Below are positions 2,213 to 61,365 of a stretch of DNA of 64,000 nt, in pieces (position 1 is the stretch's first letter; every line of letters starts with the position of its first letter). The position numbers and the translations under genes are program-made. Origin of the DNA: a bacterium (GTDB taxonomy: Bacteria; Patescibacteriota; Patescibacteriia; Patescibacteriales; UBA12465); NCBI GenBank assembly GCA_035414245.1, contig DAONYH010000003.1, positions 17,630-81,629 of the forward strand, given 5' to 3'. The notes beneath the pieces are model-generated. The model made no database searches. It was not told where the DNA came from and saw nothing but the letters and a program-made list of their open reading frames with translations.

Positions 2213-2971
2213 ATGAGTTTAGAAGAAAGAATAAAGTATGCCGAGATGAAATCTCGACATCGAAAAAAACTCACTCCTTGGTATAAAAAATGGTGGGGAA
2301 AAATAATGATTACAGTTTTCTTTTTGACGGCGATTTTCTTAGTGGCTGCCAGTATTTATGTTTTTATTGAAGCTAATAGAATTAACGAAGGAAAATCAAC
2401 TCGCTTTTTAGAAGAACAAAGAGAAAAATATTTGGCCGCTATAAATCGCAATAGCGCCAACACTTACGGACCAACAAATGCTAAAGTAACAATTGTTATT
2501 TTCTCTGATTTTGCCTGCCCTTTTTGCCGTGATTCACATGAAGGTTTAAAAAATATTCGGGAAAAATACGGTGATCAAGTAAAAATTGTTTATCGCGACT
2601 ATCCCTTGCATGATAATTCAATTTTTTTAGCTTTATCGGCTCGTTGCGCTGGCGAACAAGGAAAATTTTGGCAAATGCATGATTTATTTTTTGATAATTT
2701 TGATCAATTTAGCGATAAAAGTCAGAGTGAATTAGAAATAGTGATGCCGGAAATTGCTTCTCTTTTAGAAATAGACGCCACTCGATTTAGTTCTTGTATA
2801 AGAAACCAACGTCATTTTCCACAAATTAAACAAGACTATGAAGATGGCTCCTTCTTAGATATTGAAGGCACACCGACTTGGTTTATAAATAACAATCGTT
2901 TGATTGGTTCTATTACCAAAAAAAATCTTGAATCTTTAATTACTGATCTTCTTCATAATATAACAAAATAA
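2213..2971 (+). CDS. DsbA-like thiol:disulfide oxidoreductase with an N-terminal membrane anchor
   Basis: 252 aa. N-terminal TM helix (IMITVFFLTAIFLVAASIYVF), thioredoxin-fold CPFC active site (FSDFACPFCRDSHEGL) and a DsbA-like C-terminal region. Confidence 0.7.
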   Translation: MSLEERIKYAEMKSRHRKKLTPWYKKWWGKIMITVFFLTAIFLVAASIYVFIEANRINEGKSTRFLEEQREKYLAAINRNSANTYGPTNAKVTIVIFSDFACPFCRDSHEGLKNIREKYGDQVKIVYRDYPLHDNSIFLALSARCAGEQGKFWQMHDLFFDNFDQFSDKSQSELEIVMPEIASLLEIDATRFSSCIRNQRHFPQIKQDYEDGSFLDIEGTPTWFINNNRLIGSITKKNLESLITDLLHNITK

Positions 2972-3024
2972 ATTTATAACATAACGGAGTAAAGCGAAAT
3001 AAATTTGATATTTTATAATAATAT

Positions 3025-3570
3025 ATGAAACAAATAAGAATTCATGGACGAGGTGGACAAGGAGTGGTAACAGCCGCGGAAATTATTGCGATTGCCGCTT
3101 TTCATGAAGGTTATTATTCTCAAGCTTTCCCTCATTTTGGTGTGGAAAGAAGCGGTGCACCAATTAGATCTTATGCACGAATCGCTAAACAACCAATTTT
3201 AACCCGAGAACAAGTTGAGCGCCCTGATATTTTAATTATTCAAGATCATACTCTCTTGGACGAACCCGAAGTTTTAGCGGGTATTAACCAAGATACTTTG
3301 TTAATTATTAATGTCCCGAAAAACTTTTTCTTAGAAAAAAATTTACCCACTAAAAAAATATATTATACTCCGGCTACGGAAATTGCTTTAAAAATTATTG
3401 GCAAAAATATTGTTAATACTGTTATTTTAGGCGCCTTTGCCAAACACTCGGGATTAATTAGTCTTTCCTCTCTAAAAAAAGCAATTGCCGAAAAATTTAA
3501 AGAAAAAGGACAAACAATAATTGAAAAAAATATCCAAGCGATTACTACGGCTTATCAAACAAAACTATGA
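3025..3570 (+). CDS. porG: Pyruvate/2-oxoacid:ferredoxin oxidoreductase gamma subunit
   Basis: 181 aa. MKQIRIHGRGGQGVVTAAEIIAIAAFHEGYY is the typical PorG N-terminus. Its end overlaps the porD start by 4 nt. Confidence 0.8.
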   Translation: MKQIRIHGRGGQGVVTAAEIIAIAAFHEGYYSQAFPHFGVERSGAPIRSYARIAKQPILTREQVERPDILIIQDHTLLDEPEVLAGINQDTLLIINVPKNFFLEKNLPTKKIYYTPATEIALKIIGKNIVNTVILGAFAKHSGLISLSSLKKAIAEKFKEKGQTIIEKNIQAITTAYQTKL

Positions 3571-3836
3571 AAAAAAATATAAACAAAACCATTGCTCAGC
3601 CTCTCAGTTCTGTAAATAATAAAACCGGCGCTTGGCGAACTTATCGACCAGTCGCTGATTATCAAAAATGTGTTGGCTGTTCTCTATGCGCCAAACTTTG
3701 TCCTGAAGCATGTATTGAAATGATAAAAATAAACAATGAATTAAAACCACGCCCTGATTATGATTATTGCAAAGGCTGCGGTTTATGCGCTAAAGAATGT
3801 CCGGTTAAGGCAATTAAAATGGAAAAGGAATACTAA
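3567..3836 (+). CDS. porD: Pyruvate:ferredoxin oxidoreductase delta subunit (2x[4Fe-4S] ferredoxin)
   Basis: 89 aa with two CxxCxxCxxxCP motifs (CVGCSLCAKLCP and CKGCGLCAKECP). Confidence 0.8.
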   Translation: MKKNINKTIAQPLSSVNNKTGAWRTYRPVADYQKCVGCSLCAKLCPEACIEMIKINNELKPRPDYDYCKGCGLCAKECPVKAIKMEKEY

Positions 3837-3856
3837 AAGGAGCGTTAATTAAAAAT

Positions 3857-5026
3857 ATGAAAATGTCTAAAAATACTAACAACAAAAAAACTGGCCACCA
3901 AATTTTAGAAGGTTCCCGAGCCATCGCCTTAACAATTAAAAATATTGGTGTCCAAGTTGTTTCCGCTTATCCAATTACTCCTCAAACTCATATTGTTGAA
4001 GATCTGGCGCAATTTAAAGCTGATGGACAAGCTAATTATGAATATGCGCGCGCCGAAAGTGAATTTGCCGCAGCCTCAATTGTCTTAGGAGCAAGTGCCG
4101 CCGGTGTTAGAGCTTACAGTGCCACTAGTTCGCAAGGCTTACTACTAATGACTGAAGTTTTATACAACATTTCCGGTTTACGCTTGCCAGTAGTGATGAC
4201 ATGCGCTAATCGCTCCATTTCTTCACCAATTAATATTTGGAATGATCATGCCGATGTGATGGCTATTAGAGATAGTGGTTGGTTACAATTTTTTGCCGAA
4301 AATCATCAAGAAGCAGTTTATGCTCATTTATTAGCTTATAAAGTCGCCGAGCAAATTGGCTTGCCGGCCATAGTAAATGTTGATGGTTTTATTTTAACCC
4401 ATTCTTATGAACCGGTTTCTATTCCTGATAAAAAATTAATAAAAAAATACTTGCCGGACTATAAACCAGCCAAAGGCACTTTTCTTGACCCAAAAAATCC
4501 AGTTACTTTAGGAGCTCTTTTCGGGCCAGACTCTTATACCGGAGTTAGAAAAGATTTATACCAAGATTTTCAAACTAGCTTATCATTAATTAAAAAAGAA
4601 TACGCTTTACTTAAAAAAATATTTAAAATTAAAAATAACAGTGATGGTTTAATTGAATATACCGGACCAAAAAAACCAAAAACAATTTTAATCACCATGG
4701 GCTCATTAGCGGGCACGATTAAAACTGTCTTAACTCAATATCCGAATGTCGGTTTAATAAAAATCATGACTCTGCGCCCTTTTCCTGAACAAGAACTTAT
4801 TAAAGCAACGGCTTCTGGTTCCAATATTATAATTTTAGAAAAAGCGGTTAGCCCGGGCAGTGGTGGTCCTTTGACTTTAGAAATTAAAGCCGCTTTATCA
4901 GGTCAGAAAAAAAATATTAAAAATTATATTGTTGGTTTAGGGGGAAAAAATATTAGTGAAAAAGAAATAAGAGATATTATTGAAAAGGCGGAACAGAAAA
5001 ATAAAAATTTAATTTTTCAAAAATAA
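3857..5026 (+). CDS. porA: Pyruvate:ferredoxin oxidoreductase alpha subunit
   Basis: 389 aa. The N-terminal pyrimidine-binding domain (GSRAIALTIKNIGVQVVSAYPITPQT) and a transketolase-C-like C-terminus are typical of PorA. Confidence 0.8.
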   Translation: MKMSKNTNNKKTGHQILEGSRAIALTIKNIGVQVVSAYPITPQTHIVEDLAQFKADGQANYEYARAESEFAAASIVLGASAAGVRAYSATSSQGLLLMTEVLYNISGLRLPVVMTCANRSISSPINIWNDHADVMAIRDSGWLQFFAENHQEAVYAHLLAYKVAEQIGLPAIVNVDGFILTHSYEPVSIPDKKLIKKYLPDYKPAKGTFLDPKNPVTLGALFGPDSYTGVRKDLYQDFQTSLSLIKKEYALLKKIFKIKNNSDGLIEYTGPKKPKTILITMGSLAGTIKTVLTQYPNVGLIKIMTLRPFPEQELIKATASGSNIIILEKAVSPGSGGPLTLEIKAALSGQKKNIKNYIVGLGGKNISEKEIRDIIEKAEQKNKNLIFQK

Positions 5027-5039
5027 ATTAAAATAAAGT

Positions 5040-5576
5040 ATGCGTTTTTTAAACAGCAAAAAAAATAAATTCACTTTAATTATTAGTTTATTTATTTTTT
5101 TATTTTTTATTTTAAGTTTTAAAGTTGTTTATAGTGCTGATCTAATTAAATTTACTCCGCAAATACCTATTCCCGGGCCTAATTCTATTCCTGCTAATTC
5201 ACCGATTGGCTCAGAAGCAAACGGAAGTTTTAAAGTTGACTTATTAAGTAGGTACGTTAAATCTATATATGATTATTTAATTATCATTGCCGGTATTTTA
5301 GCGGCTGTGGTAATGATGGGCGGGGGCTTGCTTTGGCTCACTTCCGGTGGCAATGAAAGTCGAGTTACGCAAGCTAAAGATTTAATTTTCGGTAGTATAA
5401 TTGGCTTAGTCTTAGTATTTGCCTCTTACCTTATTTTAAATACGATTAATCCTGATTTATTAAACTTAAGTTCATTAGAAATGGAAACGGTTGCTCCAAA
5501 AAAAATTGAAGCTGGAGGAAGTGGTGGAAGCAGTGGAGGAGGTAGAAGCGGTGGAGGCGGCGGAGGAAGTTGGTAG
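5040..5576 (+). CDS. Pilin-like membrane protein (CPR TrbC/VirB2-like T4SS-pilin-type module) with a Gly/Ser-rich C-terminal tail
   Basis: 178 aa. N-terminal signal/TM (LIISLFIFLFFILSF), then the conserved module YDYLIIIAGILAAVVMMGGGLLWLTSGGNESRVTQAKDLIFGSIIGLVLVFASYLILNTINPDLLNL, and the tail GGSGGSSGGGRSGGGGGGSW. It is a paralog of the N-terminal half of the 6479-7435 product and lies between porA and porB with a 13-nt gap. Confidence 0.5.
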   Translation: MRFLNSKKNKFTLIISLFIFLFFILSFKVVYSADLIKFTPQIPIPGPNSIPANSPIGSEANGSFKVDLLSRYVKSIYDYLIIIAGILAAVVMMGGGLLWLTSGGNESRVTQAKDLIFGSIIGLVLVFASYLILNTINPDLLNLSSLEMETVAPKKIEAGGSGGSSGGGRSGGGGGGSW

Positions 5577-5609
5577 TATGTCAATAAAAATAAAATCCTA
5601 TAATATTTT

Positions 5610-6482
5610 ATGAATAAAAAAACTAATCAATTTCTTGCTCCCGGTCATAACGCTTGTTCTGGTTGTGGCCAATTATCAGCGGTTCAGGCAGTCATGCGCG
5701 CTTTAACTCCGGATACAATTATCGCTAATGCGACCGGTTGTTTAGAAGTAACAACCACTGCTTATCCGCAGAGTGCTTGGGGCTTACCTTGGATACATTC
5801 TTTATTTGAAAATGCAGCTGCGGTTGCTTCAGGAATTAGCGCCGCTTTAAAGCAAAAAAAGGATAAAAAAACCAAAATTTTAGTACAAGCAGGTGATGGC
5901 GGAACTTATGATATTGGCCTTGGTTTAATCAGCGGAATGTGGACTCGCGGTGAAAATATTTTATATGTTTGTTATGACACAGAATCATATTCCAATACCG
6001 GTATTCAAGCGTCCGGCTCTACTCCCTATGGTTCAGCTACCTCCACTACTCCCAGTGGTGACAAATCAATTGGCTCTCAACAAACAAAAAAAGATATGTT
6101 AGGAATTGCTTTGGCTCATGGTTTGAAATATGTAGCTCAAACTGTCTCTGGCTTCCCTGATGATATTACTAACAAAGTTAAAAAAGCACTGGCTATTTCT
6201 GGACCAACTTATATCCAAATTTTAAGTCCTTGTATTCCCGGTTGGAAAATTAATTATGATGAAGCTGCTCAGCTGGGTAAGTTAGCGGTTCAAACTGGTT
6301 TGTATCCGATTTTAGAATATATTGATGGCAATTTAGTTTCTTCCAGTATAAATAAAAATTTTAAACCAAAACCGGTTAGCGAATATTTAAAAAAACAAGG
6401 ACGATTTAAACATTTAAGCAAAAAGGAAATAGAGGCTATTCAAATGTTGGCTAATAAAAATATTGATAAATATCAATTATGA
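5610..6482 (+). CDS. porB: Pyruvate:ferredoxin oxidoreductase beta subunit (TPP-binding)
   Basis: 290 aa. CSGCG cysteine cluster and the TPP-binding region GDGGTYDIGL...CYDTESYSNTG. Confidence 0.8.
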   Translation: MNKKTNQFLAPGHNACSGCGQLSAVQAVMRALTPDTIIANATGCLEVTTTAYPQSAWGLPWIHSLFENAAAVASGISAALKQKKDKKTKILVQAGDGGTYDIGLGLISGMWTRGENILYVCYDTESYSNTGIQASGSTPYGSATSTTPSGDKSIGSQQTKKDMLGIALAHGLKYVAQTVSGFPDDITNKVKKALAISGPTYIQILSPCIPGWKINYDEAAQLGKLAVQTGLYPILEYIDGNLVSSSINKNFKPKPVSEYLKKQGRFKHLSKKEIEAIQMLANKNIDKYQL

Positions 6483-7435
6483 AAAAAATTAAATTCAATT
6501 TAAATTTATTAATATTTTCTATTCTTTTTTTAACTATTTTTTTAACGTCAATTCCTTTTGTTAATGCTGCTAAGCCAAAAATTATTATTCCTGAACCGCA
6601 AGTTAATTTAGGATTTAACTATTCTCCGCCTGATTGTACAACTAATGTTAAAGGGGAAACAGTTTGTAAAGTTAATTGGCTAGGAGAATACGTAAGTGGT
6701 GTCTATAATTTGGCGATTAAAATGGGCGGCTTAATTGCGGCCATTATGTTAATGGTCGGTGGTATTTTATGGCTTGTTTCAGGAGGGGATGTTAGCAAAG
6801 TTAGTCAAGCTAAAGATATTTTAGCAGGCAGTATAATTGGTCTTACCATTCTTCTATCATCTTATCTTTTATTAGCTCTTGTTAATCCTAATTTAGTTAA
6901 TTTTAACGAGTTAGATTTAAACGTGGCTCAAGATAAAAATTTTCCTGATACAGAGGCAACAGAAGGCGGAACTGCTTTACCGGAAGAATTTCGAGATGCT
7001 TGCGCGGCTGCTAAAGCTGGAGATTTGGGGCCATGCCAAGCACTTGGTAAATCAGCGCCAAGTAATTTAGCTAAGGCTCCGGGAGGTATTTTAGTTAATT
7101 CTGATACACTGGCTAAATTTAACCGAGCAATGGCTTGTGTAAGTAGAAAAAATAATGGCGAAGTTTTATTTTCTATTAACGAGGGTTTTCGTTCTGCCCT
7201 TGATCAAATAAAAGTTAAAGAAGAATGGATTGGAAAAGGGGCGCCACAAAACGCTGCCACTCCTTGTTGTTCAAATCACAGTTCTGGAGTAGCCATTGAT
7301 ATTAAAAGAAAAGACGGACAACTGATGAGCAAAAGCTACAATGATAGCACTGGATTAACTGCTTGTATGAATGAGGCCGGATTGTATTCTAATCTTGATA
7401 ACGAACCCTGGCACTGGTCGCCAACCGGAAGATAA
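6479..7435 (+). CDS. Pilin-like membrane protein fused to a Cys-rich C-terminal M15-type (LAS-family, VanY-like) zinc peptidase domain
   Basis: 318 aa. Signal/TM (LNLLIFSILFLTIFLTSIPFVNA). The pilin-like module VYNLAIKMGGLIAAIMLMVGGILWLVSGGDVSKVSQAKDILAGSIIGLTILLSSYLLLALVNPNLVNF is paralogous to that of 5040-5576. The C-terminal domain carries SNHSSGVAID (SxHxxGxAxD) and EPWHW (ExxH) motifs and about 9 Cys. Its ATG overlaps the porB stop (ATGA). Confidence 0.5.
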   Translation: MKKIKFNLNLLIFSILFLTIFLTSIPFVNAAKPKIIIPEPQVNLGFNYSPPDCTTNVKGETVCKVNWLGEYVSGVYNLAIKMGGLIAAIMLMVGGILWLVSGGDVSKVSQAKDILAGSIIGLTILLSSYLLLALVNPNLVNFNELDLNVAQDKNFPDTEATEGGTALPEEFRDACAAAKAGDLGPCQALGKSAPSNLAKAPGGILVNSDTLAKFNRAMACVSRKNNGEVLFSINEGFRSALDQIKVKEEWIGKGAPQNAATPCCSNHSSGVAIDIKRKDGQLMSKSYNDSTGLTACMNEAGLYSNLDNEPWHWSPTGR

Positions 7436-7450
7436 ATAAATTTTGTTTAT

Positions 7451-7486
7451 AAAAACCGACTGGTAATTAATGAGTCGGTTTTTTTA
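7451..7486. terminator. Bidirectional rho-independent terminator between convergent genes
   Basis: aaaaaCCGACTggtaattaatgAGTCGGttttttt: a perfect 6-bp GC-containing stem flanked by an A-run and a T-run. Confidence 0.6.
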
Positions 7487-7536
7487 TTCTTAAACTATAT
7501 TTTTTTATTTCTGAATACTAAAAATATTTCTGTCTT

Positions 7537-7947
7537 CTAAGCGCCTCTGTCCATAGCTTCGTTCGCTAATTGATCTGCAAGCTTATTTCTTTCACGTGGA
7601 ATATGGGTAAAGGTTATTTTTTTAAAACTTAAACTTAAATTATAAATATCTAAAAATAATGGCGCCAAATCTTTGTTTTTAACTTTATATTCTCGATTCA
7701 ACTGACAAACTACCAGTTCACTATCCAAATAACAATTTACTTCTTCAGCCCCAAGCTCTATGGCTTTTTTTAGAGCCAAAATTAAAGCCTGATACTCGGC
7801 TTGATTATTAGTTGCCACTCCTAAATACTTAGATATTTTAGCGAGCACTTCTTGATTTTCATTATATAAAACTGCGCCTACCCCGGCCGGTCCAGGATTA
7901 CCACGCGCCCCGCCATCAGTATAAATAATAATTTTTTTATTTTTCAT
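7537..7947 (-). CDS. rnhA: Ribonuclease HI
   Basis: 136 aa. IYTDGGARGNPGPAGVGAVL...NNQAEYQALILAL...TFTHIPRERNKLADQLA are the canonical RNase H catalytic motifs. Confidence 0.85.
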   Translation of the reverse strand: MKNKKIIIYTDGGARGNPGPAGVGAVLYNENQEVLAKISKYLGVATNNQAEYQALILALKKAIELGAEEVNCYLDSELVVCQLNREYKVKNKDLAPLFLDIYNLSLSFKKITFTHIPRERNKLADQLANEAMDRGA

Positions 7948-9879: not shown

Positions 9880-11721
9880 TTATCTTTTTAAAATTTTAAC
9901 AAAAGTATCCGGCGGTATTTCAACACTTCCCTTGCCGGCGACTAACATTTTTTTCTTACCCCTTTTTTGTTTTTCTAATAATTTTCTTTTGCGTGTCACA
10001 TCACCACCATATAATTTAGCGGTCACATCTTTTCTTAAAGCCGATAATTTTTCGGCAGCAATTATTTTACTGCCGATAGCGGCCTGAATTTTAATGGCAA
10101 ACATTTGACGAGGCAAATTCTCCTTTAAAATATCTACCATTTCTCGTCCTTGGCGATAAGCATCATCACGATAAACAATGGTTGCTAATGATTCAATCGG
10201 CTCTTCAGCCACTAAAATATCCATTCTAACCACATCCGCCGGACGATAATCTAAATATTCATAATTAATGGATGCATACCCCGAAGAAACACTTTTAATT
10301 TTATCATAGAAGTCGGTCAAAATAGCTGATAAAGGCATTTCATAATGCAAAATAGCTCTTCCTCCTTCATCACCAACCGAAATATACTGCGTATTTTTAT
10401 AAATACCTCTTTTTTCTTGAGCTAATTTAATAATATTGCCTAAGTATTCTTTAGGACTAATTATATCTAAAGTCACCCAGGGTTCTTCAATTTTTATTAA
10501 ATGATTTTGCTCAGGCAAACGTTGCGGAGTTCTGACAATCATTTCCTCACCATTGGTTTTAAAAACCTTATAGGCAACACTCGGCACAGTAACAATTAAA
10601 TCTAAATTATATTCACGACGTAAACGCTCCTGAAAAACTTCCAAATGCAAAAGACCTAAAAACCCACAACGAAAACCAAAACCAAGAGCGTCTGATCTTT
10701 CCGGTTCATACGATAGGGCCGAGTCATTTAATTTTAATTTTTCCATAGCCTCTCGTAATTCTTTAAAATCATTTCCTTCTTTAGGAAAAATACCGGCAAA
10801 AACCATGGGCTTTACTTCTTTATAGCCGGGCAAAGGTTCAAAATTTTCATCAGCGCTAATATTTGAACCGGAAATAATCGTATCACCGACACGACAATCA
10901 GCCACTTGCTTAAAACCAGTCACCACATAACCAATTTGTCCCGAGCGCAGTTCTTTAGTGGAAACATAGCCGGGATTAAAAATACCACAATCCAAAACTT
11001 CACTTTCTGCTTGAACAGAAACTAACTTTATTTTATCGCCTTTTTTAATCGTGCCATTAAAAACTCGGATATAGGCCACCACGCCGCGATAAGTATCATA
11101 TTTGGAATCAAAAATTAAAGAGCGTGAATAATGATGAGCTACAGGAAACTCTGGTTCACGCGGAGCACCACCGCGACGAATTATCTCTTCCAAAACTTGA
11201 GCTACACCTTCCCCGGTTTTCCCGGAAGTAGCAAAAATTTCTTCCTCGCGACAACCAATTAATTTAATAATTTCATTTTTTGTTTTAACAATATCCGCCG
11301 CGGGTAAATCAATTTTATTGATAATAGGAATAATGGTTAAATCTTGATCAAGGGCTAAATAAAGATTAGCTAGAGTTTGTGCTTGAATGCCTTGTGTTGA
11401 ATCAACTAATAACAAAGCGGTCTCAACCGCCGCTAAAGAACGAGAAACTTCATAAGAAAAATCAACATGTCCGGGCGTATCAATAAGATTTAAATTATAG
11501 CCTTGATACTGCATATTAACTGGCGTCAATTTGATAGTGATACCTCGCTCTCTTTCAATGTCCATACCATCCAACAATTGCTCCTTCATCTTTCTTTTTT
11601 CCACCGTGCCGGTCAATTCCAACATGCGATCAGCCAAAGTTGATTTACCATGGTCAATATGAGCAATAATAGAAAAATTTCTAATTTTTTTTATATCTTT
11701 ATTATCAGACATAATTATCAA
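9880..11721 (-). CDS. lepA: Elongation factor 4 (LepA)
   Basis: 613 aa. IRNFSIIAHIDHGKSTLADRMLELTG G-domain, DTPGHVDF, and the LepA-specific C-terminal domain. Confidence 0.9.
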   Translation of the reverse strand: MIIMSDNKDIKKIRNFSIIAHIDHGKSTLADRMLELTGTVEKRKMKEQLLDGMDIERERGITIKLTPVNMQYQGYNLNLIDTPGHVDFSYEVSRSLAAVETALLLVDSTQGIQAQTLANLYLALDQDLTIIPIINKIDLPAADIVKTKNEIIKLIGCREEEIFATSGKTGEGVAQVLEEIIRRGGAPREPEFPVAHHYSRSLIFDSKYDTYRGVVAYIRVFNGTIKKGDKIKLVSVQAESEVLDCGIFNPGYVSTKELRSGQIGYVVTGFKQVADCRVGDTIISGSNISADENFEPLPGYKEVKPMVFAGIFPKEGNDFKELREAMEKLKLNDSALSYEPERSDALGFGFRCGFLGLLHLEVFQERLRREYNLDLIVTVPSVAYKVFKTNGEEMIVRTPQRLPEQNHLIKIEEPWVTLDIISPKEYLGNIIKLAQEKRGIYKNTQYISVGDEGGRAILHYEMPLSAILTDFYDKIKSVSSGYASINYEYLDYRPADVVRMDILVAEEPIESLATIVYRDDAYRQGREMVDILKENLPRQMFAIKIQAAIGSKIIAAEKLSALRKDVTAKLYGGDVTRKRKLLEKQKRGKKKMLVAGKGSVEIPPDTFVKILKR

Positions 11722-11807: not shown

Positions 11808-13460
11808 TTAAACTCCACGGGCTTCACCTTGATCACCGACTTTAACTTTTTTAAATGGCCAACGATTTTTAAGTGCATCAATGAACCAAAAAAATTCTTC
11901 ACTATTTAATAAATAACAGAACCAAGCATAAACTAAGACTCCAGAACCAAAGGAAGCGACTAACTGAGTAAATACACCACTAAATTTAGTCATATCAATA
12001 TAAGGCCAAACCACCACTTTCATAATTTGTGCGGTTATGCCCGCAGCAATGGCGGCTGCGATAAATTTCAAGGAAGAAAACATTATCTTATTAAAATCTA
12101 AGGTTCCTACTTTAACATAAAGCCAGAAAGAGAGCAAGATTAAATTTAAAATATTAGCGACGGAAAAAGCTAAAGCTAAACCGGCCACACCCATTAATTT
12201 CCCTAGATAAAAAGACAAAATAATATTAATAACAATTGAAACCAAACCAAAATAAAAAGGAGTGCGTGAATTATGAAGAGCATAAAAAACACGCGTCACT
12301 AAAGGAATCGTAGCTTGAGCAAAAATACTAATCGTAAAAAATCCTAAAGCATCCATGGTCATAAAAGTGGCTCGCCAATCAAAATTACCCGTCCCTAAAA
12401 TAACGCGCACAATCTGAGCGCGTAAAGCAATAATCAAAATCGTAGCGGGAATAATAAAAAATAAAATTTGTCTCATGGTGCTAGAAAAATGTTGCGTCAA
12501 TTTTTCTTTGTTATGAGCATTTTCAGCTAAGGACGGAAAGGCGGCAATGGCAAAAGAAATACCAAAAATTCCTACGGGAAAAGACTGTAAATTATTAGCA
12601 AAATTGAAAGCGGTTAAAGAGCCACTGGGCAAAGTAGAGGCGATAATTGTGATTACTACTAAATTGATTTGGGAAATAGCCAAACTCATGGTTCTAGGAA
12701 CCATCATTTTACCGATTTTTCTCAGCTTTTCATTTTTCCAATTTAAAACAAAAGAATATTTGAATCCTAAATTATAAACTGCGGGAAGTTGAATTAAAAA
12801 GTGTAGAGCAGCGCCTAAAACCACTCCCCAAGCCAAACCTGTGATGCCAAAAATATCAACAAAATAAAGAGCACCAATGATAATACCGATGTTATAGAAA
12901 ATTGGCGCTAATGAATAAACAAAAAACTTTTTAAACGATTGCAAAATACCTCCTAAAATACCGGACATCCCTAAAAAAATCGGCGATAAAAACATTATTC
13001 TAGTTAAGGCGACAGTGCTTTGTTGTTCGCTGACGCCAAAACCGGGAGCAATAATTTTAACTAATTGCGGCGCAAAAATAATTCCGATTAAAGAAAGAGC
13101 AATTAAACTAATCAATAAAGAATTAGCGACATTACTGGCCAACTGCCAAGCTTCCTGATTTTCCTTCTGACCATTTTTTCTATCGCTTGCCTTATTTTTT
13201 ATTAAGCTGCTAAATATAGGGATAAAGCCGGCTGATAAAGCTCCTAAAACAATCAAATTAAAAATCAAATCCGGAATACGAAAAGCGGCATAATAAATAT
13301 CTAAGGTTGTGCCTGCGTTAAAACGACCAGCTAAAATTCTATCTCGAACAACCCCTAAAAGACGAGATGTTAAAGACGACAAAGCAACGAGCGCGGCTGC
13401 GACCGTAATATTATTGATTGATTGATTGAAAAATCTTTTTAGAAAAAATTTTTTAAACAT
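11808..13460 (-). CDS. murJ: Lipid II flippase MurJ (MviN)
   Basis: 550 aa polytopic membrane protein. RLLGVVRDRILAGRFNAGTTLDIYYAAFRIPDLIFNL is the conserved MurJ N-terminus. Confidence 0.8.
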   Translation of the reverse strand: MFKKFFLKRFFNQSINNITVAAALVALSSLTSRLLGVVRDRILAGRFNAGTTLDIYYAAFRIPDLIFNLIVLGALSAGFIPIFSSLIKNKASDRKNGQKENQEAWQLASNVANSLLISLIALSLIGIIFAPQLVKIIAPGFGVSEQQSTVALTRIMFLSPIFLGMSGILGGILQSFKKFFVYSLAPIFYNIGIIIGALYFVDIFGITGLAWGVVLGAALHFLIQLPAVYNLGFKYSFVLNWKNEKLRKIGKMMVPRTMSLAISQINLVVITIIASTLPSGSLTAFNFANNLQSFPVGIFGISFAIAAFPSLAENAHNKEKLTQHFSSTMRQILFFIIPATILIIALRAQIVRVILGTGNFDWRATFMTMDALGFFTISIFAQATIPLVTRVFYALHNSRTPFYFGLVSIVINIILSFYLGKLMGVAGLALAFSVANILNLILLSFWLYVKVGTLDFNKIMFSSLKFIAAAIAAGITAQIMKVVVWPYIDMTKFSGVFTQLVASFGSGVLVYAWFCYLLNSEEFFWFIDALKNRWPFKKVKVGDQGEARGV

Positions 13461-15726: not shown

Positions 15727-17721
15727 TTAAAAAGCGCGCACATCAGCCGCTAAAATTTCCTGAGCTGTTAAAAAGAGGGGGTTAATATCAAATTCTTTTA
15801 TTTGTCTATTTTGATTGGCTAAATGAGAAAAATTAACTAATACTTTAGCCAACTTATGAATATCATATTTAATCCCCCCGCGCGCACCATTTAAAATTGG
15901 AAAAAAGGCTGATTCTTTTATAAATTCCAACGCTCTTTTTTCATCTAAATCAGCAATCGTTAATTTTACTTCCTTTAATATCTCCGCATATATGCCACCT
16001 AAACCAAAAAGTAAAACCGGTCCGAACGAGGCATCTTGTTTAAAGCCTAAAATCAATTCTAACTTATCTTTAATTTGCGGCTGGATAACTAAATAATTGT
16101 CTTGCTTTGAAAAAGCGGTTTTATATTTTTGTTGCAATTTCTCAGCGGCAGTTTTTAATTCAGTTAAATTATTGAGATTTAAAACAATCGCCTTTTTATC
16201 GCTTTTATGATTAAAATCCGGACCAACCGCTTTTAGAACAAGCGGAAAAGTTAATTTTTCTTTTATTCGGGGATTATATTTTAACGTTTTAACGCTCTTA
16301 ATTTTATATTTATTTAAAAGCGCAAAAAGTTCTAAATAGTCATAGTCTTTTTTCTTTTTGATTTCGGCAACTACTTCATAATTAATTGAATTATAAGGAG
16401 TAAATTGAGATAGATTCTGCGCATTTTTTATTAAAGCGCCCAAGGACTTAATTGCTTCTTCTGGATAAGAAAAGAAAGGTAAACCTTCACTGATTAAATA
16501 CTCTCGAGCTTCGGCAATGGTATCACCCCCCAAAAAGCTAGTCATAATTAGGCGTTTTGGATTTTGTTTAGCTAATTTTGCAATCACTTCCGCGGTTCTT
16601 AAAGGTTCAGTGCCTAGTTGAGGGCTGAGCAAAATTAAAATATTAGTTTCTTTATTAGTATTGAGCGATTTTTTTAAAGCTTTCTCATAATCCTCGGGGC
16701 TAGCATTACCAAACAAATCAAAATTGCCAACTAAATTTATATCCTGTTCAGCGGCGGCATCGGCTGATAAAACCGCTAAGCCACCAGCGTTAGTAATAAT
16801 TTGTAATTTATTACTTAATTTATTTTTTACCACTGACGGCGAACGCAAAATAATAACTAAATTAAATAAATCATTGAGATTATCAATTAAAATTGCTCCC
16901 GCTCGCTTTAAACCAATTTTAGTCGCCATTGATTCACCGGCCAAGGCTCCGGTATGAGATTTAGCTAAAGCTTGTCCGCTCGCACTGGTACCGGCTTTTA
17001 AAATAGCGACCGTTTTCTCGGGAACTATTTGAGAAACAATCTGCATAAATTTTTCACCGTCTGCCACTTCTTCTAAATATAAAATAATTGAATCAATATT
17101 TTTATCTTTACCTAAATATTCTAGAAAATCATTTTCATTTAACCCAGCTTTATTTCCTAAGCTGATAAAATATCCTAATCCTAAATTTTGTGCTTTAAGC
17201 CAATCAAGCACTGAACTGCCAATCGCTCCGGATTGAGAAATGAAGGCCACTTTGGAATTAATATTGGCGCGATGAGAGAAACTAGCATTAAAATGATTAA
17301 AATTATTAATAAAACCAAGGCAATTTGGACCTAAAACATTTAAGCCATATTTATTGATTAAAACTTTAAGTTCTGCTTCGCGCTTCTTGCCTTTGGCATC
17401 ACTTTCTTTAAATCCGGCACTGATAATAATAATATTTTTAATTCCCAATCGCCCGCATTTTTCTATTTCCGGTAAAACAAAGGCGGCGGGAATAACTATC
17501 ATTACTAATAAACTTGACCAATCTTTAATCGGTAATTTTTCTAAGTCAGAAAAAACCGGCAAAGAGGCAATAGTTTTTTCCTGTAAATTAATAGGAAAAA
17601 TTTTACCTTGATAACCACTGGAAATAATATTATCTAAAACTTGCCGCCCGACTTTTTTCGGATTTTGAGAAGCGCCCACCACCGCAATGGCAGAAGGAGT
17701 AAAAAAGTTTTTTAAATTCAT
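15727..17721 (-). CDS. Acetyl-CoA synthetase (ADP-forming), fused alpha/beta (NDP-forming acyl-CoA synthetase)
   Basis: 664 aa. N-terminal CoA-binding domain AIAVVGASQNPKKVGRQVLDNI, succinyl-CoA-synthetase-like ligase-CoA domains, and a C-terminal ATP-grasp domain. Confidence 0.75.
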   Translation of the reverse strand: MNLKNFFTPSAIAVVGASQNPKKVGRQVLDNIISSGYQGKIFPINLQEKTIASLPVFSDLEKLPIKDWSSLLVMIVIPAAFVLPEIEKCGRLGIKNIIIISAGFKESDAKGKKREAELKVLINKYGLNVLGPNCLGFINNFNHFNASFSHRANINSKVAFISQSGAIGSSVLDWLKAQNLGLGYFISLGNKAGLNENDFLEYLGKDKNIDSIILYLEEVADGEKFMQIVSQIVPEKTVAILKAGTSASGQALAKSHTGALAGESMATKIGLKRAGAILIDNLNDLFNLVIILRSPSVVKNKLSNKLQIITNAGGLAVLSADAAAEQDINLVGNFDLFGNASPEDYEKALKKSLNTNKETNILILLSPQLGTEPLRTAEVIAKLAKQNPKRLIMTSFLGGDTIAEAREYLISEGLPFFSYPEEAIKSLGALIKNAQNLSQFTPYNSINYEVVAEIKKKKDYDYLELFALLNKYKIKSVKTLKYNPRIKEKLTFPLVLKAVGPDFNHKSDKKAIVLNLNNLTELKTAAEKLQQKYKTAFSKQDNYLVIQPQIKDKLELILGFKQDASFGPVLLFGLGGIYAEILKEVKLTIADLDEKRALEFIKESAFFPILNGARGGIKYDIHKLAKVLVNFSHLANQNRQIKEFDINPLFLTAQEILAADVRAF

Positions 17722-18016: not shown

Positions 18017-19498
18017 TTAATCATCTATCTTAAAAATTTTTTGCCAAAGACTGCGTCCGGTAAATTCTATTTTTATTTCTTTTATTTCTAAATAATCGTC
18101 TTCCCCGTTTTCCGTCTTGAGCCCGGGAATAGACAACATAAAACTATACTTCCCTTTCTCTCGATAAGTTCCCTTAGTTCTAAATTCAGCTGAAGCAATA
18201 TTCAATTGTCTATCTTTTACATCAAGCGACGGTGTTTGATAATCAAAAATTACATATTCTAAATCATCAGCTAAAACAAAATGACGATCAACTTTTTTTA
18301 ACAAGGGATTAAAATAATCTTCAGCAGATAAAGAAAAAACTCCGTTATTTTCTAAAATCAAATCCGCTTTAGCAAATTTAATTTCCTTTAAATCATTACC
18401 AGAAACAACATATTCAAACTGTTCATAGGGCGCGGAAACAGTAAAGCTTTGCTCACCAAAATAAATATCTTGCAAATTAGCCGGATCAAGAGCTTTAACT
18501 TGTAAATAGTTTGCCTCAGTAAAAACTTTTATCTCGTCTGAAGCGCTAACAGGCCAAAATTTATGAGTAAAAACCATCAAACCAGACGAACTATAGATAT
18601 TATCAATAATAACATCATCGCTAATTTTAATTTCCAACTTATATAAACCAGCTGAAAAATTACCTTCTAAATTTAAAGTCTGTGATTTTTGATTTTGCCA
18701 ATCAACTTTTTCGCCCTCAATAATTACTTCTTTTATCACTTCCTGGTCTTTCGTTAAAATTAATTTAAGTGGACTGTTTTTTGTTTCTGGCGAATAAGCA
18801 CTGAAATTAGTTTTAAATTGCCAAGCACCATCGTTTAGATAAAGCCAAAGAACATGATTACCTCGGAGAGCAATATCTAAGTTAGTGGCTGTTGCTTTGC
18901 TTTTAGTCGATTTAAATTGATAATTAGGATTAAAATTATAAGTGGCTAAACAAGTGGTCACTCCGGATGAACAATCTTTTAAGTCATTATTTTCTAAAGC
19001 AATTAAAAATTGATCAAGGCTTTCGTAATTTTTATTTTTTTGTAGCAAAACTAAATTGTCCTGCTCAATTTTAAACCAAGTATTTTTCAAATCGTCTAAA
19101 ATTTGATTTTTGAGTGGTTGTAAATCATAACGCCAAACTTGTTTATCAACTAAAACACCAGCTTCAATAATTGGCGTCTGATCAGTTAAATTAGAATAAT
19201 AACTAAGTGTGAGTTTGGCTTTCGTAAAAGTGCGGGGGGTAAAAACAGAAAAATAAACCGGGTCGCCTATTAAGCGCGGACGATTATTCTCATCAGATAC
19301 TCTTTCCACGGGGGTGAAATTATAAATAAATCCTTTGCCTGATTGTAAAATACGAGTAAAATCTTTTCGGTAGCTGATATGACCAAAAGGAACAATTTTC
19401 AAAAACAAGAAGATGCCAAAAAATAAAAAAATAAGCAACAACCAAAACCGGCGCATTTTTTGTTGAGGCGTCTTTTTCCCTGATAATAAACAAACCAT
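18017..19498 (-). CDS. Membrane-anchored/exported hypothetical protein (N-terminal TM, roughly 450-aa extracytoplasmic region)
   Basis: 493 aa. N-terminal RRFWLLLIFLFFGIFLFL anchor. The remainder is polar and beta-rich-looking with no motif I recognise. It is separated from rpoC by a terminator. Confidence 0.5.
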   Translation of the reverse strand: MVCLLSGKKTPQQKMRRFWLLLIFLFFGIFLFLKIVPFGHISYRKDFTRILQSGKGFIYNFTPVERVSDENNRPRLIGDPVYFSVFTPRTFTKAKLTLSYYSNLTDQTPIIEAGVLVDKQVWRYDLQPLKNQILDDLKNTWFKIEQDNLVLLQKNKNYESLDQFLIALENNDLKDCSSGVTTCLATYNFNPNYQFKSTKSKATATNLDIALRGNHVLWLYLNDGAWQFKTNFSAYSPETKNSPLKLILTKDQEVIKEVIIEGEKVDWQNQKSQTLNLEGNFSAGLYKLEIKISDDVIIDNIYSSSGLMVFTHKFWPVSASDEIKVFTEANYLQVKALDPANLQDIYFGEQSFTVSAPYEQFEYVVSGNDLKEIKFAKADLILENNGVFSLSAEDYFNPLLKKVDRHFVLADDLEYVIFDYQTPSLDVKDRQLNIASAEFRTKGTYREKGKYSFMLSIPGLKTENGEDDYLEIKEIKIEFTGRSLWQKIFKIDD

Positions 19499-37553: not shown

Positions 37554-38471
37554 ATGGATACCAAGCAACTTCCTAATTTAGATGAAAGCGTCATGTCCGC
37601 CCTAAATTTTTTTAGCAAAAATACCCCACCTAAATTTAATCTCAAAATCACTGATTTGCCTTTTATAATCGGCAGTGGCAATGCTTATAATACTGGCAAA
37701 ATAATTTTTTCTCAGCAACCAGCTGTTTTTGCTAATGAAAGTAATCTAAAAACCAAATTAAAAGCTCATAAAAAATTAATTAATGCGGGTGTAATTAAGC
37801 AAGCGATTATTATTTCTGCCTCCGGAGAAAAGGATGCAGTTTGGGAAATAGCAGAAGCCAAAAAATATGGTCTAAAAACTATTTTAATGACTTGTGGAGC
37901 TGATTCTTCAGGCGCAAAAGTAGCTGACCGAGTTTTAGTTTATAGAAAAATTGCTGAACCGCAAACTTACAATATCTCCACTTACTTAGGGATGATTATT
38001 TCGGTTAGCAAAGAAAAACCAGAGGCAATCAAAAAATTCTTGCAAAAAATAAAACTGCCCAAAAAGTTTGCTGATTACAACGCCTATTCATTTATTGTTC
38101 CTGATGAAATGGCTGAAATAACACCGATGTTAGACATAAAAAAACATGAACTTTTTGGTCCATATCTATCAATTCGTTCTTTTAGCTTTGGTGATGCTCG
38201 GCATGCTAAATTTGTTATGCCCTGGGAAAAAGAGTTAGTAATTAGTTTGGGAAAAAATAATTATTTTGGCTTTAAAAATCAGCGCTTGGAAATTAACTTG
38301 CCGAAAAATTATGGTCCAGGATTGGTGATGGCTTTAACTTATTATTTAATTGGCAAAATTCAAGCGAGTAAAAAACCTTATTACAAACAAAACATTGCTA
38401 AATATTGTTTAGAAGGGCCTAAGGCTTATGGGCGAAAAAAACCTTTTGCAATAATAGTCCCAGGTAATTAA
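37554..38471 (+). CDS. Hypothetical protein, possibly a SIS-domain sugar-phosphate isomerase (archaeal-type bifunctional PGI/PMI-like)
   Basis: 305 aa. GSGNAYNTG and IIISASGEKDAVWEIAEAKKYGLKTILMTCG resemble SIS-domain glycine/serine loops. The size matches PGI/PMI. The assignment is weak. Confidence 0.3.
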   Translation: MDTKQLPNLDESVMSALNFFSKNTPPKFNLKITDLPFIIGSGNAYNTGKIIFSQQPAVFANESNLKTKLKAHKKLINAGVIKQAIIISASGEKDAVWEIAEAKKYGLKTILMTCGADSSGAKVADRVLVYRKIAEPQTYNISTYLGMIISVSKEKPEAIKKFLQKIKLPKKFADYNAYSFIVPDEMAEITPMLDIKKHELFGPYLSIRSFSFGDARHAKFVMPWEKELVISLGKNNYFGFKNQRLEINLPKNYGPGLVMALTYYLIGKIQASKKPYYKQNIAKYCLEGPKAYGRKKPFAIIVPGN

Positions 38472-39474: not shown

Positions 39475-40824
39475 ATGACGATAAAGGTGCTCCATTTTTT
39501 AGGAGATCTTATAGTCAAATTGGTCCGGCTGGTAGCCGGCTTTTTTAGTCTACTCTTTAAATTTTTATTTTCTCGAATTTTAGTAAAAATTTATTTTGGT
39601 ATTTTTCGTTTTAAAAACAATATTTTAAAAGAAAAAAGTTCTTCTCAATTATTGAATAAAAACTTAGCTTATTTCTTTATTTTTTTCTTAGCCGCCTTTT
39701 TTATTTATAACAATGTAAAAACACGCAACGAGGTTAGCGCGGCTACCGTAAATAATGTATCAAAAACAGTGATGGCTAATTTGGTAAAAAATGAATTTAG
39801 TATTTTAAATGATGAAGAGTTAATTGAAGAAGGTTATACTCCCGGTAGTTTGAAAACAGCTGGCCAAGAAAAATACGATACTGATATTTTAGTCGCCATT
39901 AAAAAAACTCCAAACTTAGAAAACATTAGCTCAACTACTGGATCGCAACAAACTGAATATAATCCTTTGGTTTTAGTAAATGAAGAGGCGGTAGCAGTAA
40001 AACCACTGGCTGTTTCAGATGATGTTTTAGCTGATGATGGCATAATTCCAGAAAGAAAAGAAATTGTTTATTACACTGTTCAAGCGGGTGACACAGTTAG
40101 CACCATTGCCCGCAAATTTGATATTACCATCAACACAATTTTATGGGCCAACAATTTGAGTTCATACAGTTTAATTAGACCCGGGGATTCACTAACAATT
40201 TTGCCCAAAAGCGGTGTGATGCATACGGTAAAAAGTGGTGATACGATTTCTAAAATCGCAAAATTATATGGAGTAGATGAAAATGAAATAACTAGTAGCA
40301 ATAATCTAGGCAACACTTTGAAAATTGGAGATAAAATAATGGTGCCGGGCGGTAGAAAAATTGTCACAATTGCCAAAACAACTTCGGCGCCCAGCAATAC
40401 TACCGGTCTCTCAATTATTCGTGATTTAGTAAAAACTCCCGCTGCTACAGCTGCCAGTTCTGAAGGGGGAAAAATGTTATGGCCAACCGAGGGACAAAGA
40501 ATTACACAATATTATTCTTGGCGTCACACTGGTTTAGATATTGCTAATAAAACCGGTACTCCTTTATACGCTGCCGAAGATGGAACAGTTGAATTTGCCG
40601 GTTGGAACAAGGGATATGGTTATAATATTTTGATTGATCACGGGGGTGGCAAAAAAACTCGCTATGCTCATGCCAGCAAACTTCATGTATCAGCGGGTGA
40701 TGTGGTAACCAGAGGTGATACGATTGCAGATATGGGTTCAACCGGTTGGTCAACTGGACCACACATTCATTTTGAGGTTATAATTAATGGGACAAAACAA
40801 AATCCTTTAAATTATATAAAATAA
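39475..40824 (+). CDS. LysM-domain M23 (lysostaphin-type) peptidoglycan endopeptidase, membrane anchored
   Basis: 449 aa. N-terminal TM, two LysM repeats (YYTVQAGDTVSTIARKF; HTVKSGDTISKIAKLYG), and an M23 domain (HTGLDIA...IDHGGG...HIHFEV). Confidence 0.8.
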   Translation: MTIKVLHFLGDLIVKLVRLVAGFFSLLFKFLFSRILVKIYFGIFRFKNNILKEKSSSQLLNKNLAYFFIFFLAAFFIYNNVKTRNEVSAATVNNVSKTVMANLVKNEFSILNDEELIEEGYTPGSLKTAGQEKYDTDILVAIKKTPNLENISSTTGSQQTEYNPLVLVNEEAVAVKPLAVSDDVLADDGIIPERKEIVYYTVQAGDTVSTIARKFDITINTILWANNLSSYSLIRPGDSLTILPKSGVMHTVKSGDTISKIAKLYGVDENEITSSNNLGNTLKIGDKIMVPGGRKIVTIAKTTSAPSNTTGLSIIRDLVKTPAATAASSEGGKMLWPTEGQRITQYYSWRHTGLDIANKTGTPLYAAEDGTVEFAGWNKGYGYNILIDHGGGKKTRYAHASKLHVSAGDVVTRGDTIADMGSTGWSTGPHIHFEVIINGTKQNPLNYIK

Positions 40825-60887: not shown

Positions 60888-61346
60888 TTACTCCTCTTTT
60901 TCATTATTATTTTCTCCTAAACTGCTTTCTCCCGAATTATTTTCTCTTGAACCACTTTCTCTTGAGCTATTTTCTTTTGACTTAGGAAAAAGTCGCCAAG
61001 TTCTTTGCCAAAAAATTCCTTCTGAATTTTCTAATATTAAAGTTAACCCCTCCTCATCTCTTTCAAATCTGATATATTTTTTAAATTTTTCTTTTAAACC
61101 TTGAGGTTTATTATCAATGTTTCCACTCTCAGTAGTAGTTGCCGACTCAGTTACTTCTGAGTGGCTACCAAAAATTTTTTCTCCTTGTTTAACACCCCAA
61201 TCAGCACCACGATACCAAATTGACTGACGAATTTTTTCTCTTCCCTCTTCATTATTACTATAACGATAGCTAACCATCAGCGTTAAAGCAAAAAATAATG
61301 CCAAAAGAATGATGATTACTAGTGGTTTGTTTAAATATTTACTCAT
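60888..61346 (-). CDS. Small membrane-anchored protein with a C-terminal low-complexity Ser/Glu/Asn/Gly repeat region, hypothetical
   Basis: 152 aa. N-terminal anchor KPLVIIILLALFFALTLMV. C-terminus SRESGSRENNSGESSLGENNNEKEE, encoded by about 5 degenerate 15-nt DNA repeats (TTTCTCYNNNNNNNN) at 60900-60990. The opposite-strand ORF looks like an artefact. Confidence 0.4.
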   Translation of the reverse strand: MSKYLNKPLVIIILLALFFALTLMVSYRYSNNEEGREKIRQSIWYRGADWGVKQGEKIFGSHSEVTESATTTESGNIDNKPQGLKEKFKKYIRFERDEEGLTLILENSEGIFWQRTWRLFPKSKENSSRESGSRENNSGESSLGENNNEKEE

Positions 61347-61365
61347 ATTAAACTACCAAAATGGC

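Follow-up and report, generated by a model that had tools for sequence, protein, structure and literature searches.

A large part of bacterial diversity is made up of Patescibacteria, and how they manage to live on other bacteria is hardly understood. The four-subunit form of pyruvate:ferredoxin oxidoreductase (PFOR) is encoded by a standard por operon in the order porG/C-porD-porA-porB, for example in Thermotoga maritima, Helicobacter pylori, and Pyrococcus furiosus. In the 64,000 nucleotides (nt) analysed here and called the window (GenBank assembly GCA_035414245.1, contig DAONYH010000003.1, positions 17,630 to 81,629, from a member of the Patescibacteriota lineage UBA12465), the subunit set, the order, and the cofactor motifs of this operon are retained, but porA and porB are split, as they are in relatives, by one or two genes for exported proteins. 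The gene in the gap of the window, insert1, encodes 178 amino acids (aa), and a second one, insert2 (318 aa), directly follows porB. Both products belong to PF18895 (T4SS_pilin; T4SS, type IV secretion system), and the second is fused to a peptidase domain. A gene for a DsbA-like oxidoreductase and this module-peptidase gene bracket the operon. The reality of the two genes, their membership in PF18895, the peptidase, and the lineage-wide conservation of the arrangement are all held with high confidence.

The closest described proteins are the VirB2-like pilins of Patescibacteria, known from the T4SS arrays of Southlakia epibionticum and Nanosynbacter. In S. epibionticum, the one species tested, the arrays within the T4SS cluster are essential (PMC10633639; PMC12857230). 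In the Candidate Phyla Radiation (CPR), pilin genes are distant from virB4 in about 40% of assemblies, the arrays can contain a non-pilin gene, and most genomes with VirB2 homologs have no recognisable VirB1 (PMC12102498). The inserts share with these pilins the PF18895 family, a signal peptide, a two-helix hairpin, and the occurrence of several divergent paralogs per genome. They differ in being located inside a central-metabolism operon, conserved between and after PFOR subunit genes, with a DsbA-like partner, with large cysteine-rich ectodomains or a peptidoglycan-hydrolase domain in most members, and with no T4SS genes near. Likewise, the VirB2, TrbC, and TraA proteins (PF04956) have the long signal peptide, the two hydrophobic helices, the short polar loop, and both termini predicted outside, but the inserts are larger (178 and 318 aa, with family medians of about 355 and 405 aa), possess a small beta cap and ectodomains, and are not beside virB3/virB4.

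The enzymatic part of insert2 also has known counterparts. The LdcB, DacB, VanY, and VanXY peptidases (MEROPS M15B, LAS fold) share with it the fold, the H-x6-D and H zinc ligands, the catalytic E, and the substrate-binding R, but insert2 is anchored by an N-terminal VirB2-like hairpin and not by a simple signal or transmembrane (TM) anchor. An N-terminal membrane anchor with one or several extracellular peptidoglycan-degrading domains behind it is the design of the VirB1-type wall hydrolases of Gram-positive T4SS, such as PrgK of pCF10, TraG of pIP501, and CD419/TrsG, and the domain repertoires overlap (SLT, NlpC/P60/CHAP-like, lysozyme; for background see PMC12102498). Unlike in these hydrolases, the anchor of insert2 is a PF18895 hairpin instead of a single TM segment, the enzyme is of the M15 type, and no T4SS is adjacent; a VirB1-like role for it is a suggestion. 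Modular type IV pilins, such as PilB of Streptococcus sanguinis, are similarly built of a small module, a linker, and a swappable functional module (PMC8179133); their module is unrelated and the inserts have no class III signal peptide, which makes this an analogy only. In the literature searched (on PF18895, on the pilins of Patescibacteria and Falkowbacteria, on PFOR, and on VirB2 with hydrolases) no description of the por interleaving, of the hairpin-hydrolase fusions, or of the DsbA partnership was found, in agreement with the original prediction from the bare sequence of the window, which had considered the arrangement undescribed. The protein family and the kind of peptidase domain are known, and the arrangement and the modular architecture are new as far as that literature goes.

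The original prediction had assigned the two products to PF18895, and both do pass its gathering threshold of 26.6 bits (Table 1). The second family which it had named, TrbC/VirB2 (PF04956), was not recovered at its threshold in Pfam, as insert1 reached 17.3 bits against a cut-off of 27.9 and insert2 gave no match. The same pattern holds for the orthologs: PF18895 is matched at E <= 0.01 by 89 of the 91 proteins encoded between porA and porB (the ‘between’ class) and by 47 of the 48 encoded after porB (the ‘after’ class), and PF04956 is matched weakly by a single protein in each class (1/91 and 1/48). The hydrophobic module which the two inserts had been said to share is present in both, with the two quoted stretches found verbatim, and the proteins align by BLASTP with 38% identity over 157 aa (E 4e-25). 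Judged by this similarity insert1 and insert2 are paralogs, and no third copy of the module was found in the 64-kb window.

Each insert has a positively charged N-terminal region and three hydrophobic segments by hydropathy (residues 12-30, 80-98, and 115-133 in insert1), which bears out the predicted N-terminal signal followed by a hydrophobic module. In insert1 the signal peptide takes up approximately residues 1-33 (nt 5040-5138), the hairpin module residues 69-136 (nt 5244-5447), and a low-complexity Gly/Ser tail residues 156-178 (nt 5505-5573). In insert2 the signal peptide (approximately residues 1-30) and the hairpin module (65-131, nt 6671-6871) are followed by a disordered linker at about 150-164 and by the peptidase at about 165-318 (nt 6971-7432). 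Cleavage is likely after YSA33 in insert1 and after VNA30 in insert2. Between the signal segment and the hairpin both inserts have a P-Q-I-x-I-P-G region, a conserved motif found at residues 40-46 of insert1. AlphaFold2 (AF2) models, made with homolog alignments as input, show hairpins with helices at 68-101/106-136 in insert1 (predicted local distance difference test, pLDDT, about 90) and 67-100/105-135 in insert2, with overall pLDDT of 80-94. The two hydrophobic helices are joined in each case by a polar loop of about 12 residues, and the residues before helix 1 and after helix 2 form a small beta cap. Both ends of the hairpin are predicted to be outside the membrane with the loop in the cytoplasm, the signal-peptide and topology calls having been made from hydropathy and models and not by dedicated predictors.

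However, ‘pilin’ is here the name of a family and not a demonstrated function. Fold searches cannot separate a VirB2-type hairpin from other helical hairpins, and the absence of a significant match to any solved pilin in the hairpin fold searches is accordingly uninformative. A profile of 43 family members run against all PDB sequences gave no pilin and no meaningful match. The pilin-like character claimed for the inserts was therefore upheld as to family (PF18895) and not as to function, as PF04956 stayed sub-threshold and the scanned open reading frames (ORFs) of the window included no T4SS genes. A reading of the FTLI segment of insert1 as a type IV pilin class III signal peptide was rejected, since K-FTLII has neither the Gly nor Glu5 and the N-termini of the orthologs differ; in insert2 such a motif is missing altogether.

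The original prediction had missed that insert2 is a fusion. Its C-terminal domain reached 20.0 bits for VanY, against a Pfam gathering cut-off of 25, and orthologs in the same slot matched VanY (E 2.4e-10), Peptidase_M15 (E 4.6e-9), and M15_4 (E 2.5e-17), with another locus (L117) scoring 31.7 and 39.6 bits. Phmmer searches of insert2 against the PDB gave LdcB and DacB matches that were all sub-threshold, for which reason the peptidase call was settled by the fold search. In Foldseek searches of the PDB with the AF2 model of the C-terminal domain (pLDDT 88-96), the top 22 matches were all VanXY, VanY, LdcB, or DacB (E 1.3e-6 to 3.7e-4, probability 1.0, template modelling score relative to the target about 0.5). 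The catalytic set is kept as well: among 24 orthologs R238, H267, and D274 are invariant and E309 and H312 are at least 90% conserved (H-x6-D, E-x2-H). The domain also has additional conserved cysteines (PCCSNH motif). By sequence and model, insert2 joins a VirB2-like hairpin to a zinc peptidase of the VanY/LdcB type whose catalytic site is intact.

The arrangement is not a strain-specific accident, which had been raised as a possibility. In a scan of one genome per GTDB species by PorB alignment, the best 80 of at least 592 relatives were taken, with PorB 56-82% identical; these loci are recorded as Patescibacteria group or Candidatus Falkowbacteria, NCBI phylum Candidatus Falkowiibacteriota. 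Of the 63 loci in which porA and porB are both visible, 62 have at least one module gene in the gap (two in 11 of them), and a module gene directly follows porB in 44 of 69 evaluable loci. The sole locus with contiguous porA and porB (L068, 1/63) still has a module gene after porB. The same layout was seen in every context look-up, for insert1 homologs of 80, 58, 48, 48, and 45% identity and for insert2 homologs of 48 and 43%. The shared order is an Exo_endo_phos gene on the minus strand, the DsbA-like gene, porG, porD, porA, a module gene, porB, a variable position, and then the genes of RNase H, RecJ, LepA, and MurJ, all four on the minus strand. The spacing is tight, with medians of 5.5 nt from porA to the module gene, 25 nt from there to porB, and -4 nt from porB to the next gene, and an overlap at the porB stop occurs in 28 of 48 loci. 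In relatives 1-21 nt separate porG from the DsbA-like gene, which is directly upstream in every look-up that reached that far. A PorB homolog search aimed at more distant por operons gave 7670 matches, and those listed were all at least 74% identical.

The module sequences retain a record of their position. For 134 of 138 modules the nearest neighbour is of the same position class, ‘between’ or ‘after’, and the divergence of the modules correlates with that of PorB (Spearman 0.47 and 0.32), which indicates, at the level of sequence, an old duplication followed mainly by vertical descent. There are also signs of homogenisation of the modules within genomes, since tandem copies are 67-100% identical in the module and ‘between’ and ‘after’ copies of the same genome have an identity of 0.56 versus 0.49 across genomes. 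Tandem pairs between porA and porB are found at L026 and L029 and also at L033, L047, L049, L060, L081, and L082; their regions outside the hairpin differ, which suggests a recent duplication or a gene conversion confined to the module.

The locus is variable in content: the copy number of the module gene ranges from 0 to 3 and the length of the porA-porB gap from 89 to more than 4000 nt. These gaps showed neither an integrase or transposase nor a repeat boundary. In a more distant por subclade a conserved pair of ORFs of about 71 aa is located just 5' of porB (L012:3149-3671; L049:5541-5971; L075:5510-5944; L082:5319-5829), with similar-sized ORF pairs at L060, L061, L063, L079-L081, and L092. 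One member of the pair is a DUF2283 protein and its partner has a faint PBECR3/RelE/barnase-like match; in these features the pair resembles a toxin-antitoxin module. One locus (L052:4392-5963) has a single 523-aa ORF in which the N-terminal half of PorA (residues 13-204, 79% identical) is in frame with a pilin-like module, either through a deletion that destroyed porA in that metagenome-assembled genome (MAG) or through misassembly. Dozens of third-party annotation (TPA) MAG records with the same module-gene layout and PorB 56-78% identical (L016, L017, L020-L022, and others) are titled ‘uncultured Gammaproteobacteria’, a taxon label that seems unreliable and a deposit artefact.

The family is built on a constant hairpin and variable ectodomains. 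The ‘between’ proteins have a median length of about 355 aa and consist of the module and a C-terminal extension with 8.8% Cys and without a Pfam match. In the ‘after’ proteins (median about 405 aa) a Cys-rich region (7.3% Cys) precedes the module, and the C-terminal domain varies: VanY/Peptidase_M15/M15_4 in 19, NlpC/P60 in 6, 3D in 6, C39-like in 6, and Amidase_5 in 1. The window has a Cys background of 0.61%. The proteins of the family have a median of 18 Cys in total, and their number is even for 70 of the 90 ‘between’ and 33 of the 48 ‘after’ proteins. This composition suggests disulfide-bonded extracellular domains. The extreme Cys content of the ectodomains in the family would explain a partner of the DsbA type, and the first gene of the unit, which the original prediction had overlooked, encodes a protein with matches to Thioredoxin_4 (92 bits, E 5.6e-26) and DSBA (52 bits, E 7.8e-14), a single TM helix at residues 33-51, and a CPFC motif. 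A Thioredoxin_4/DSBA gene is also directly 5' of one or two module genes, including one for a module+M15 protein, at five loci from which por is absent (L106, L116, L117, L124, L126). Hence, the DsbA-like gene is the likely functional partner of the module genes, which may depend on it for folding.

The two inserts of the window depart from this pattern. Insert1 is the shortest of the 91 proteins in its slot and the sole Cys-free one among the 90 analysed. By comparison of the DNA with an 80%-identical ortholog, its tail replaces an ancestral Cys-rich C-terminal domain, and the ancestral stop region persists past the new stop. A 99%-identical database protein (P0001) differs from insert1 solely at the extreme C-terminus (178 vs 187 aa; window 5505-5576, the GC-rich tail), which is consistent with indel slippage in a repeat. 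The reverse-strand poly-Pro ORF at 5426-5584 was rejected as a real gene, being the complement of the Gly-rich tail of insert1.

Relatives of the module occur in several other settings. More distant homologs are found in true T4SS loci in the order PrgI/VirB3, TraC-like, VirB4, two further genes, and the module gene (L097, L127; also L115, L122). At L128:4196-9239 a full disulfide-forming system adjoins a module gene: a 155-aa homolog of insert1 has as its neighbours two genes of the DsbA type, a homolog of VKOR, and an SLT_2-like protein. The order DsbA-like, module+M15, (module), RadA is seen at L117:2933-7834 and L126:2722-6154, with no por at the locus, and fits a published remark that T4SS-related loci of the class ABY1 often include radA, recG, or comF. 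In a Colwellbacteria array (L095:7001-11540), PF18895 genes alternate with ORFs of about 195 aa and one gene encodes PF18895 with Peptidase_M23; a 461-aa ORF of the array has apparently three tandem hairpin modules (tblastn 10278-10511, 10578-10829, 10902-11141). A 164-aa PF18895 gene is located between gatA and gatB of gatCAB at L096:5269-9072, where it overlaps the gatA stop, and two metagenomic relatives of this gene (L098, L099; 58-65% identical) have the same gatA-module-gatB order (gatC-gatA-PF18895-gatB). The gatCAB case shows that por is not the only essential enzyme operon with such a gene lodged between its subunit genes.

The features of the unit in the window are given in Table 1. 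The gene reported before porB and the 13-nt spacer that separates it from the porA stop agree in the ORF list and the raw sequence, and the gene after porB indeed begins at an ATGA junction, in which its ATG overlaps the porB TGA. The porA and porB genes are not contiguous in the window, as the 583 nt from the porA stop to the porB start hold insert1. All four PFOR subunit domains were found by Pfam (POR; two Fer4; POR_N with PFOR_II; TPP_enzyme_C). Two CxxCxxCxxxCP motifs are visible in the porD translation, and the GDG motif and the cluster cysteines C44 and C208 are invariant in the PorB alignment. With its domains and its thiamine pyrophosphate (TPP) and Fe-S motifs present, the set is by sequence a four-subunit pyruvate/2-oxoacid:ferredoxin oxidoreductase.

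Table 1. Features of the por unit and its immediate surroundings in the window
Feature	Position (nt)	Strand	Evidence and remarks
DsbA-like thiol:disulfide oxidoreductase	2213..2971	+	first gene of unit; Thioredoxin_4/DSBA, CPFC motif
porG, PFOR gamma subunit	3025..3570	+	PF01558 POR, E 3.6e-43
porD, PFOR delta subunit, 2x[4Fe-4S] ferredoxin-like	3567..3836	+	Fer4 and Fer4_21 matches; start overlaps porG stop
porA, PFOR alpha subunit	3857..5026	+	POR_N E 2.7e-68; PFOR_II E 2.9e-20
insert1, 178-aa PF18895 (VirB2-like) protein	5040..5576	+	PF18895 33.7 bits; AF2 hairpin; orthologs in same slot
porB, PFOR beta subunit, TPP-binding	5610..6482	+	TPP_enzyme_C E 1.4e-18
insert2, 318-aa PF18895 module with VanY/LdcB-type (MEROPS M15, LAS-fold) domain	6479..7435	+	PF18895 29.6 bits; fold and catalytic residues
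Intrinsic terminator-like hairpin and U-tract	7451..7490	+	RNA fold -16.1 kcal/mol, z -4.3
RNase H gene, convergent with unit	7537..7947	-	

The DsbA-like gene is 53 nt 5' of porG on the same strand, downstream of a divergently transcribed gene. The terminator-like hairpin starts 15 nt past insert2 and is followed by U7, and by direct folding none of 200 shuffles was equally stable. In the terminator scan no comparable plus-strand structure was reported inside the unit, except one within a coding sequence. Promoter-like sites are not enriched in the unit (17 found vs 20.8 expected by shuffling), a count that is uninformative either way in AT-rich DNA. Owing to the tight spacing, the one strong terminator, and the lack of an excess of internal promoter-like sites, positions 2213-7490 very probably constitute one seven-gene transcription unit. 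The possibility of the inserts being spurious ORFs was rejected on the grounds that orthologs exist, dozens of them in the same position for each, and that dN/dS is below 1. Against two relatives dN/dS is 0.17-0.35 for the inserts, 0.14-0.17 for the DsbA-like gene, and 0.01-0.13 for the por genes (porG 0.02-0.11); by these values both inserts are under purifying selection, at rates nearer those of the DsbA-like gene than of the por genes.

These observations are probably best combined by regarding the por operon as interleaved with an envelope gene set, namely the DsbA-like gene and the genes of two exported hairpin proteins, that hitch-hikes on por. The seven genes (dsbA-like, porG, porD, porA, module gene 1, porB, and module gene 2) would be co-transcribed. 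The module proteins would be exported by a Sec-type signal peptide and would then form membrane hairpins with both ends outside, and the membrane-anchored DsbA-like enzyme would oxidise their ectodomains where these are present. As the hairpin ends are predicted outside, insert2 would display its peptidase on the outer face, where the M15 domain, a putative zinc carboxypeptidase or endopeptidase, could trim peptidoglycan stem peptides outside the membrane. Its target may be the wall of the cell itself, for example opened for surface machinery in a VirB1-like job, or the wall of a host bacterium. The por and envelope genes would have been interleaved once, early in a Falkowbacteria-type lineage, and co-inherited since, with the slot after porB swapping its enzymatic domain and the porA-porB gap gathering duplicates and the toxin-antitoxin-like pair. 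The original prediction had left open whether such an arrangement means co-regulation with energy metabolism or hitch-hiking. The second option fits best, given that in another lineage a relative occupies the position between gatA and gatB, and the link to PFOR is thus rather to be seen as hitch-hiking than as a PFOR-specific function: the envelope genes would piggy-back on an essential, constitutively expressed operon, and a biochemical link to PFOR is improbable. A specific tie to energy metabolism has the conserved gene adjacency itself as the whole of its support.

Several points weigh against this account. Co-transcription and translational coupling are deduced from the spacing and one terminator. 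That 62 of 63 species have retained a gene in the porA-porB gap despite their deep divergence exceeds what is usual for neutral hitch-hiking, so that a direct functional tie to PFOR expression or stoichiometry is possible. Insert1 of the window has 0 Cys and insert2 is without the Cys-rich N-region of its orthologs, which by sequence makes the DsbA argument weaker for this genome. PorB identity is 56% or more across the sampled por loci, so the phylogenetic edge of the trait lies beyond the sample. Further, the family has relatives in real T4SS loci, and the hairpin may be a polymerising pilin and not a static anchor. The corresponding alternative, which is rather unlikely but the most serious of the rivals, is that the module proteins are true T4SS pilus subunits, extracted and polymerised into a conjugative-type pilus by VirB3/VirB4 machinery whose genes are in another part of the genome. 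In that case insert2 and those orthologs in which the enzymatic domain is swapped would be ‘modular pilins’, showing a wall-cutting enzyme on the pilus or at its tip to breach the host wall, and placement in the por operon would give the high constitutive expression needed by a major structural subunit. This is favoured by the PF18895 membership of both inserts and by homologs of 33-55% identity that adjoin PrgI/VirB3, TraC-like, and VirB4 genes at the four T4SS loci mentioned above (L097, L115, L122, L127); the essential arrays of S. epibionticum (PMC10633639; PMC12857230), the distance of many CPR pilin genes from virB4 and the possible interruption of their arrays (PMC12102498), and the parallel of a constant module with a variable C-terminal enzyme in modular type IV pilins (PMC8179133) agree with it. 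However, Pfam scans of 30 ORFs of the window outside the por unit gave no T4SS domain; they covered every ORF of at least 450 aa with the exception of the 550-aa ORF at 11808-13460 and of two with 1305 and 1119 aa, and passed over three smaller ORFs as well. This negative result, the bulky ectodomains, and the DsbA partnership favour, for the por-embedded paralogs at least, the role of an anchor or carrier.

A role specific to PFOR, in which the inserts tether or organise the enzyme at the membrane or tune the porA:porB expression, would explain the retained slot (62/63 loci, with PorB divergence down to 56%) as well as the tight spacing and the gene overlaps on both sides. It is nevertheless very unlikely. 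The predicted cytoplasmic part of each protein is the loop of about 12 residues alone, porA and porB are contiguous at L068, module genes accompany DsbA without por in other lineages, and a relative fills the equivalent slot in gatCAB, an unrelated enzyme. The gap, moreover, also holds duplicates and the toxin-antitoxin-like pair, as is typical of a permissive site, and the por genes evolve 3-10 times more slowly than the inserts. Those same contents, with 0 to 3 copies, gap lengths of 89 to more than 4000 nt, swapped C-terminal domains, and within-genome homogenisation (67-100% between tandem copies, 0.56 vs 0.49 for ‘between’ and ‘after’ copies), could be read as selfish or accessory cargo at a recombination hot-spot, with the similarity across species due to repeated insertion instead of common descent. 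This is highly improbable, given that the gaps show no integrase, transposase, or repeat boundary, that 134 of 138 nearest neighbours match in position class, that module divergence follows PorB divergence, that the wider synteny is constant, and that the genes are under purifying selection.

In Patescibacteria, PF18895 genes may be a versatile carrier module that brings DsbA-folded Cys-rich or wall-degrading ectodomains to the surface and that lodges as a rule inside the operons of essential multi-subunit enzymes (por in a Falkowbacteria-type lineage of phylum level, gatCAB in another), hard-wiring the expression and retention of a host-interaction or wall apparatus to core metabolism and translation. 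This generalisation is put forward tentatively, as one possibility; if true, it would be an unrecognised principle of genome organisation in reduced epibionts and would also provide their T4SS with its ‘missing VirB1’. Independently of it, the VirB2-like family has a widespread modular form, in which the hairpin is combined with swappable wall-cutting enzymes or Cys-rich domains and a DsbA-like oxidoreductase is the steady partner. Throughout the radiation of one entire lineage the module genes have been locked in the operon of the main fermentative enzyme, with gatCAB as a parallel case. The hairpin may hence be a surface carrier or anchor and not a filament subunit, the fusions may supply the VirB1-like wall-opening function seemingly missing in most CPR genomes, and embedding in essential operons may be how reduced genomes make sure that surface machinery is expressed. 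In annotating genomes of this clade, a split porA/porB should be taken as normal and not as evidence that the operon is broken. The depth of conservation and the gatCAB parallel would surprise CPR and T4SS specialists, even though hitch-hiking, the likeliest explanation of the linkage, is undramatic.

There are a few further observations on the remainder of the window. Four sizeable ORFs (493, 305, 152, and 423 aa) are without a Pfam match at the thresholds used (18017-19498 on the minus strand, 37554-38471 on the plus strand, and 60888-62637 on the minus strand). A separate wall hydrolase with two LysM domains and Peptidase_M23, without a PF18895 module, is encoded at 39475-40824 on the plus strand. 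An ORF at 15727-17721, on the opposite strand and 8 kb from the por unit, encodes an ADP-forming acetyl-CoA synthetase (CoA_binding, Succ_CoA_lig, and ATP-grasp_5), which is the enzyme that converts the acetyl-CoA of PFOR into acetate and ATP.

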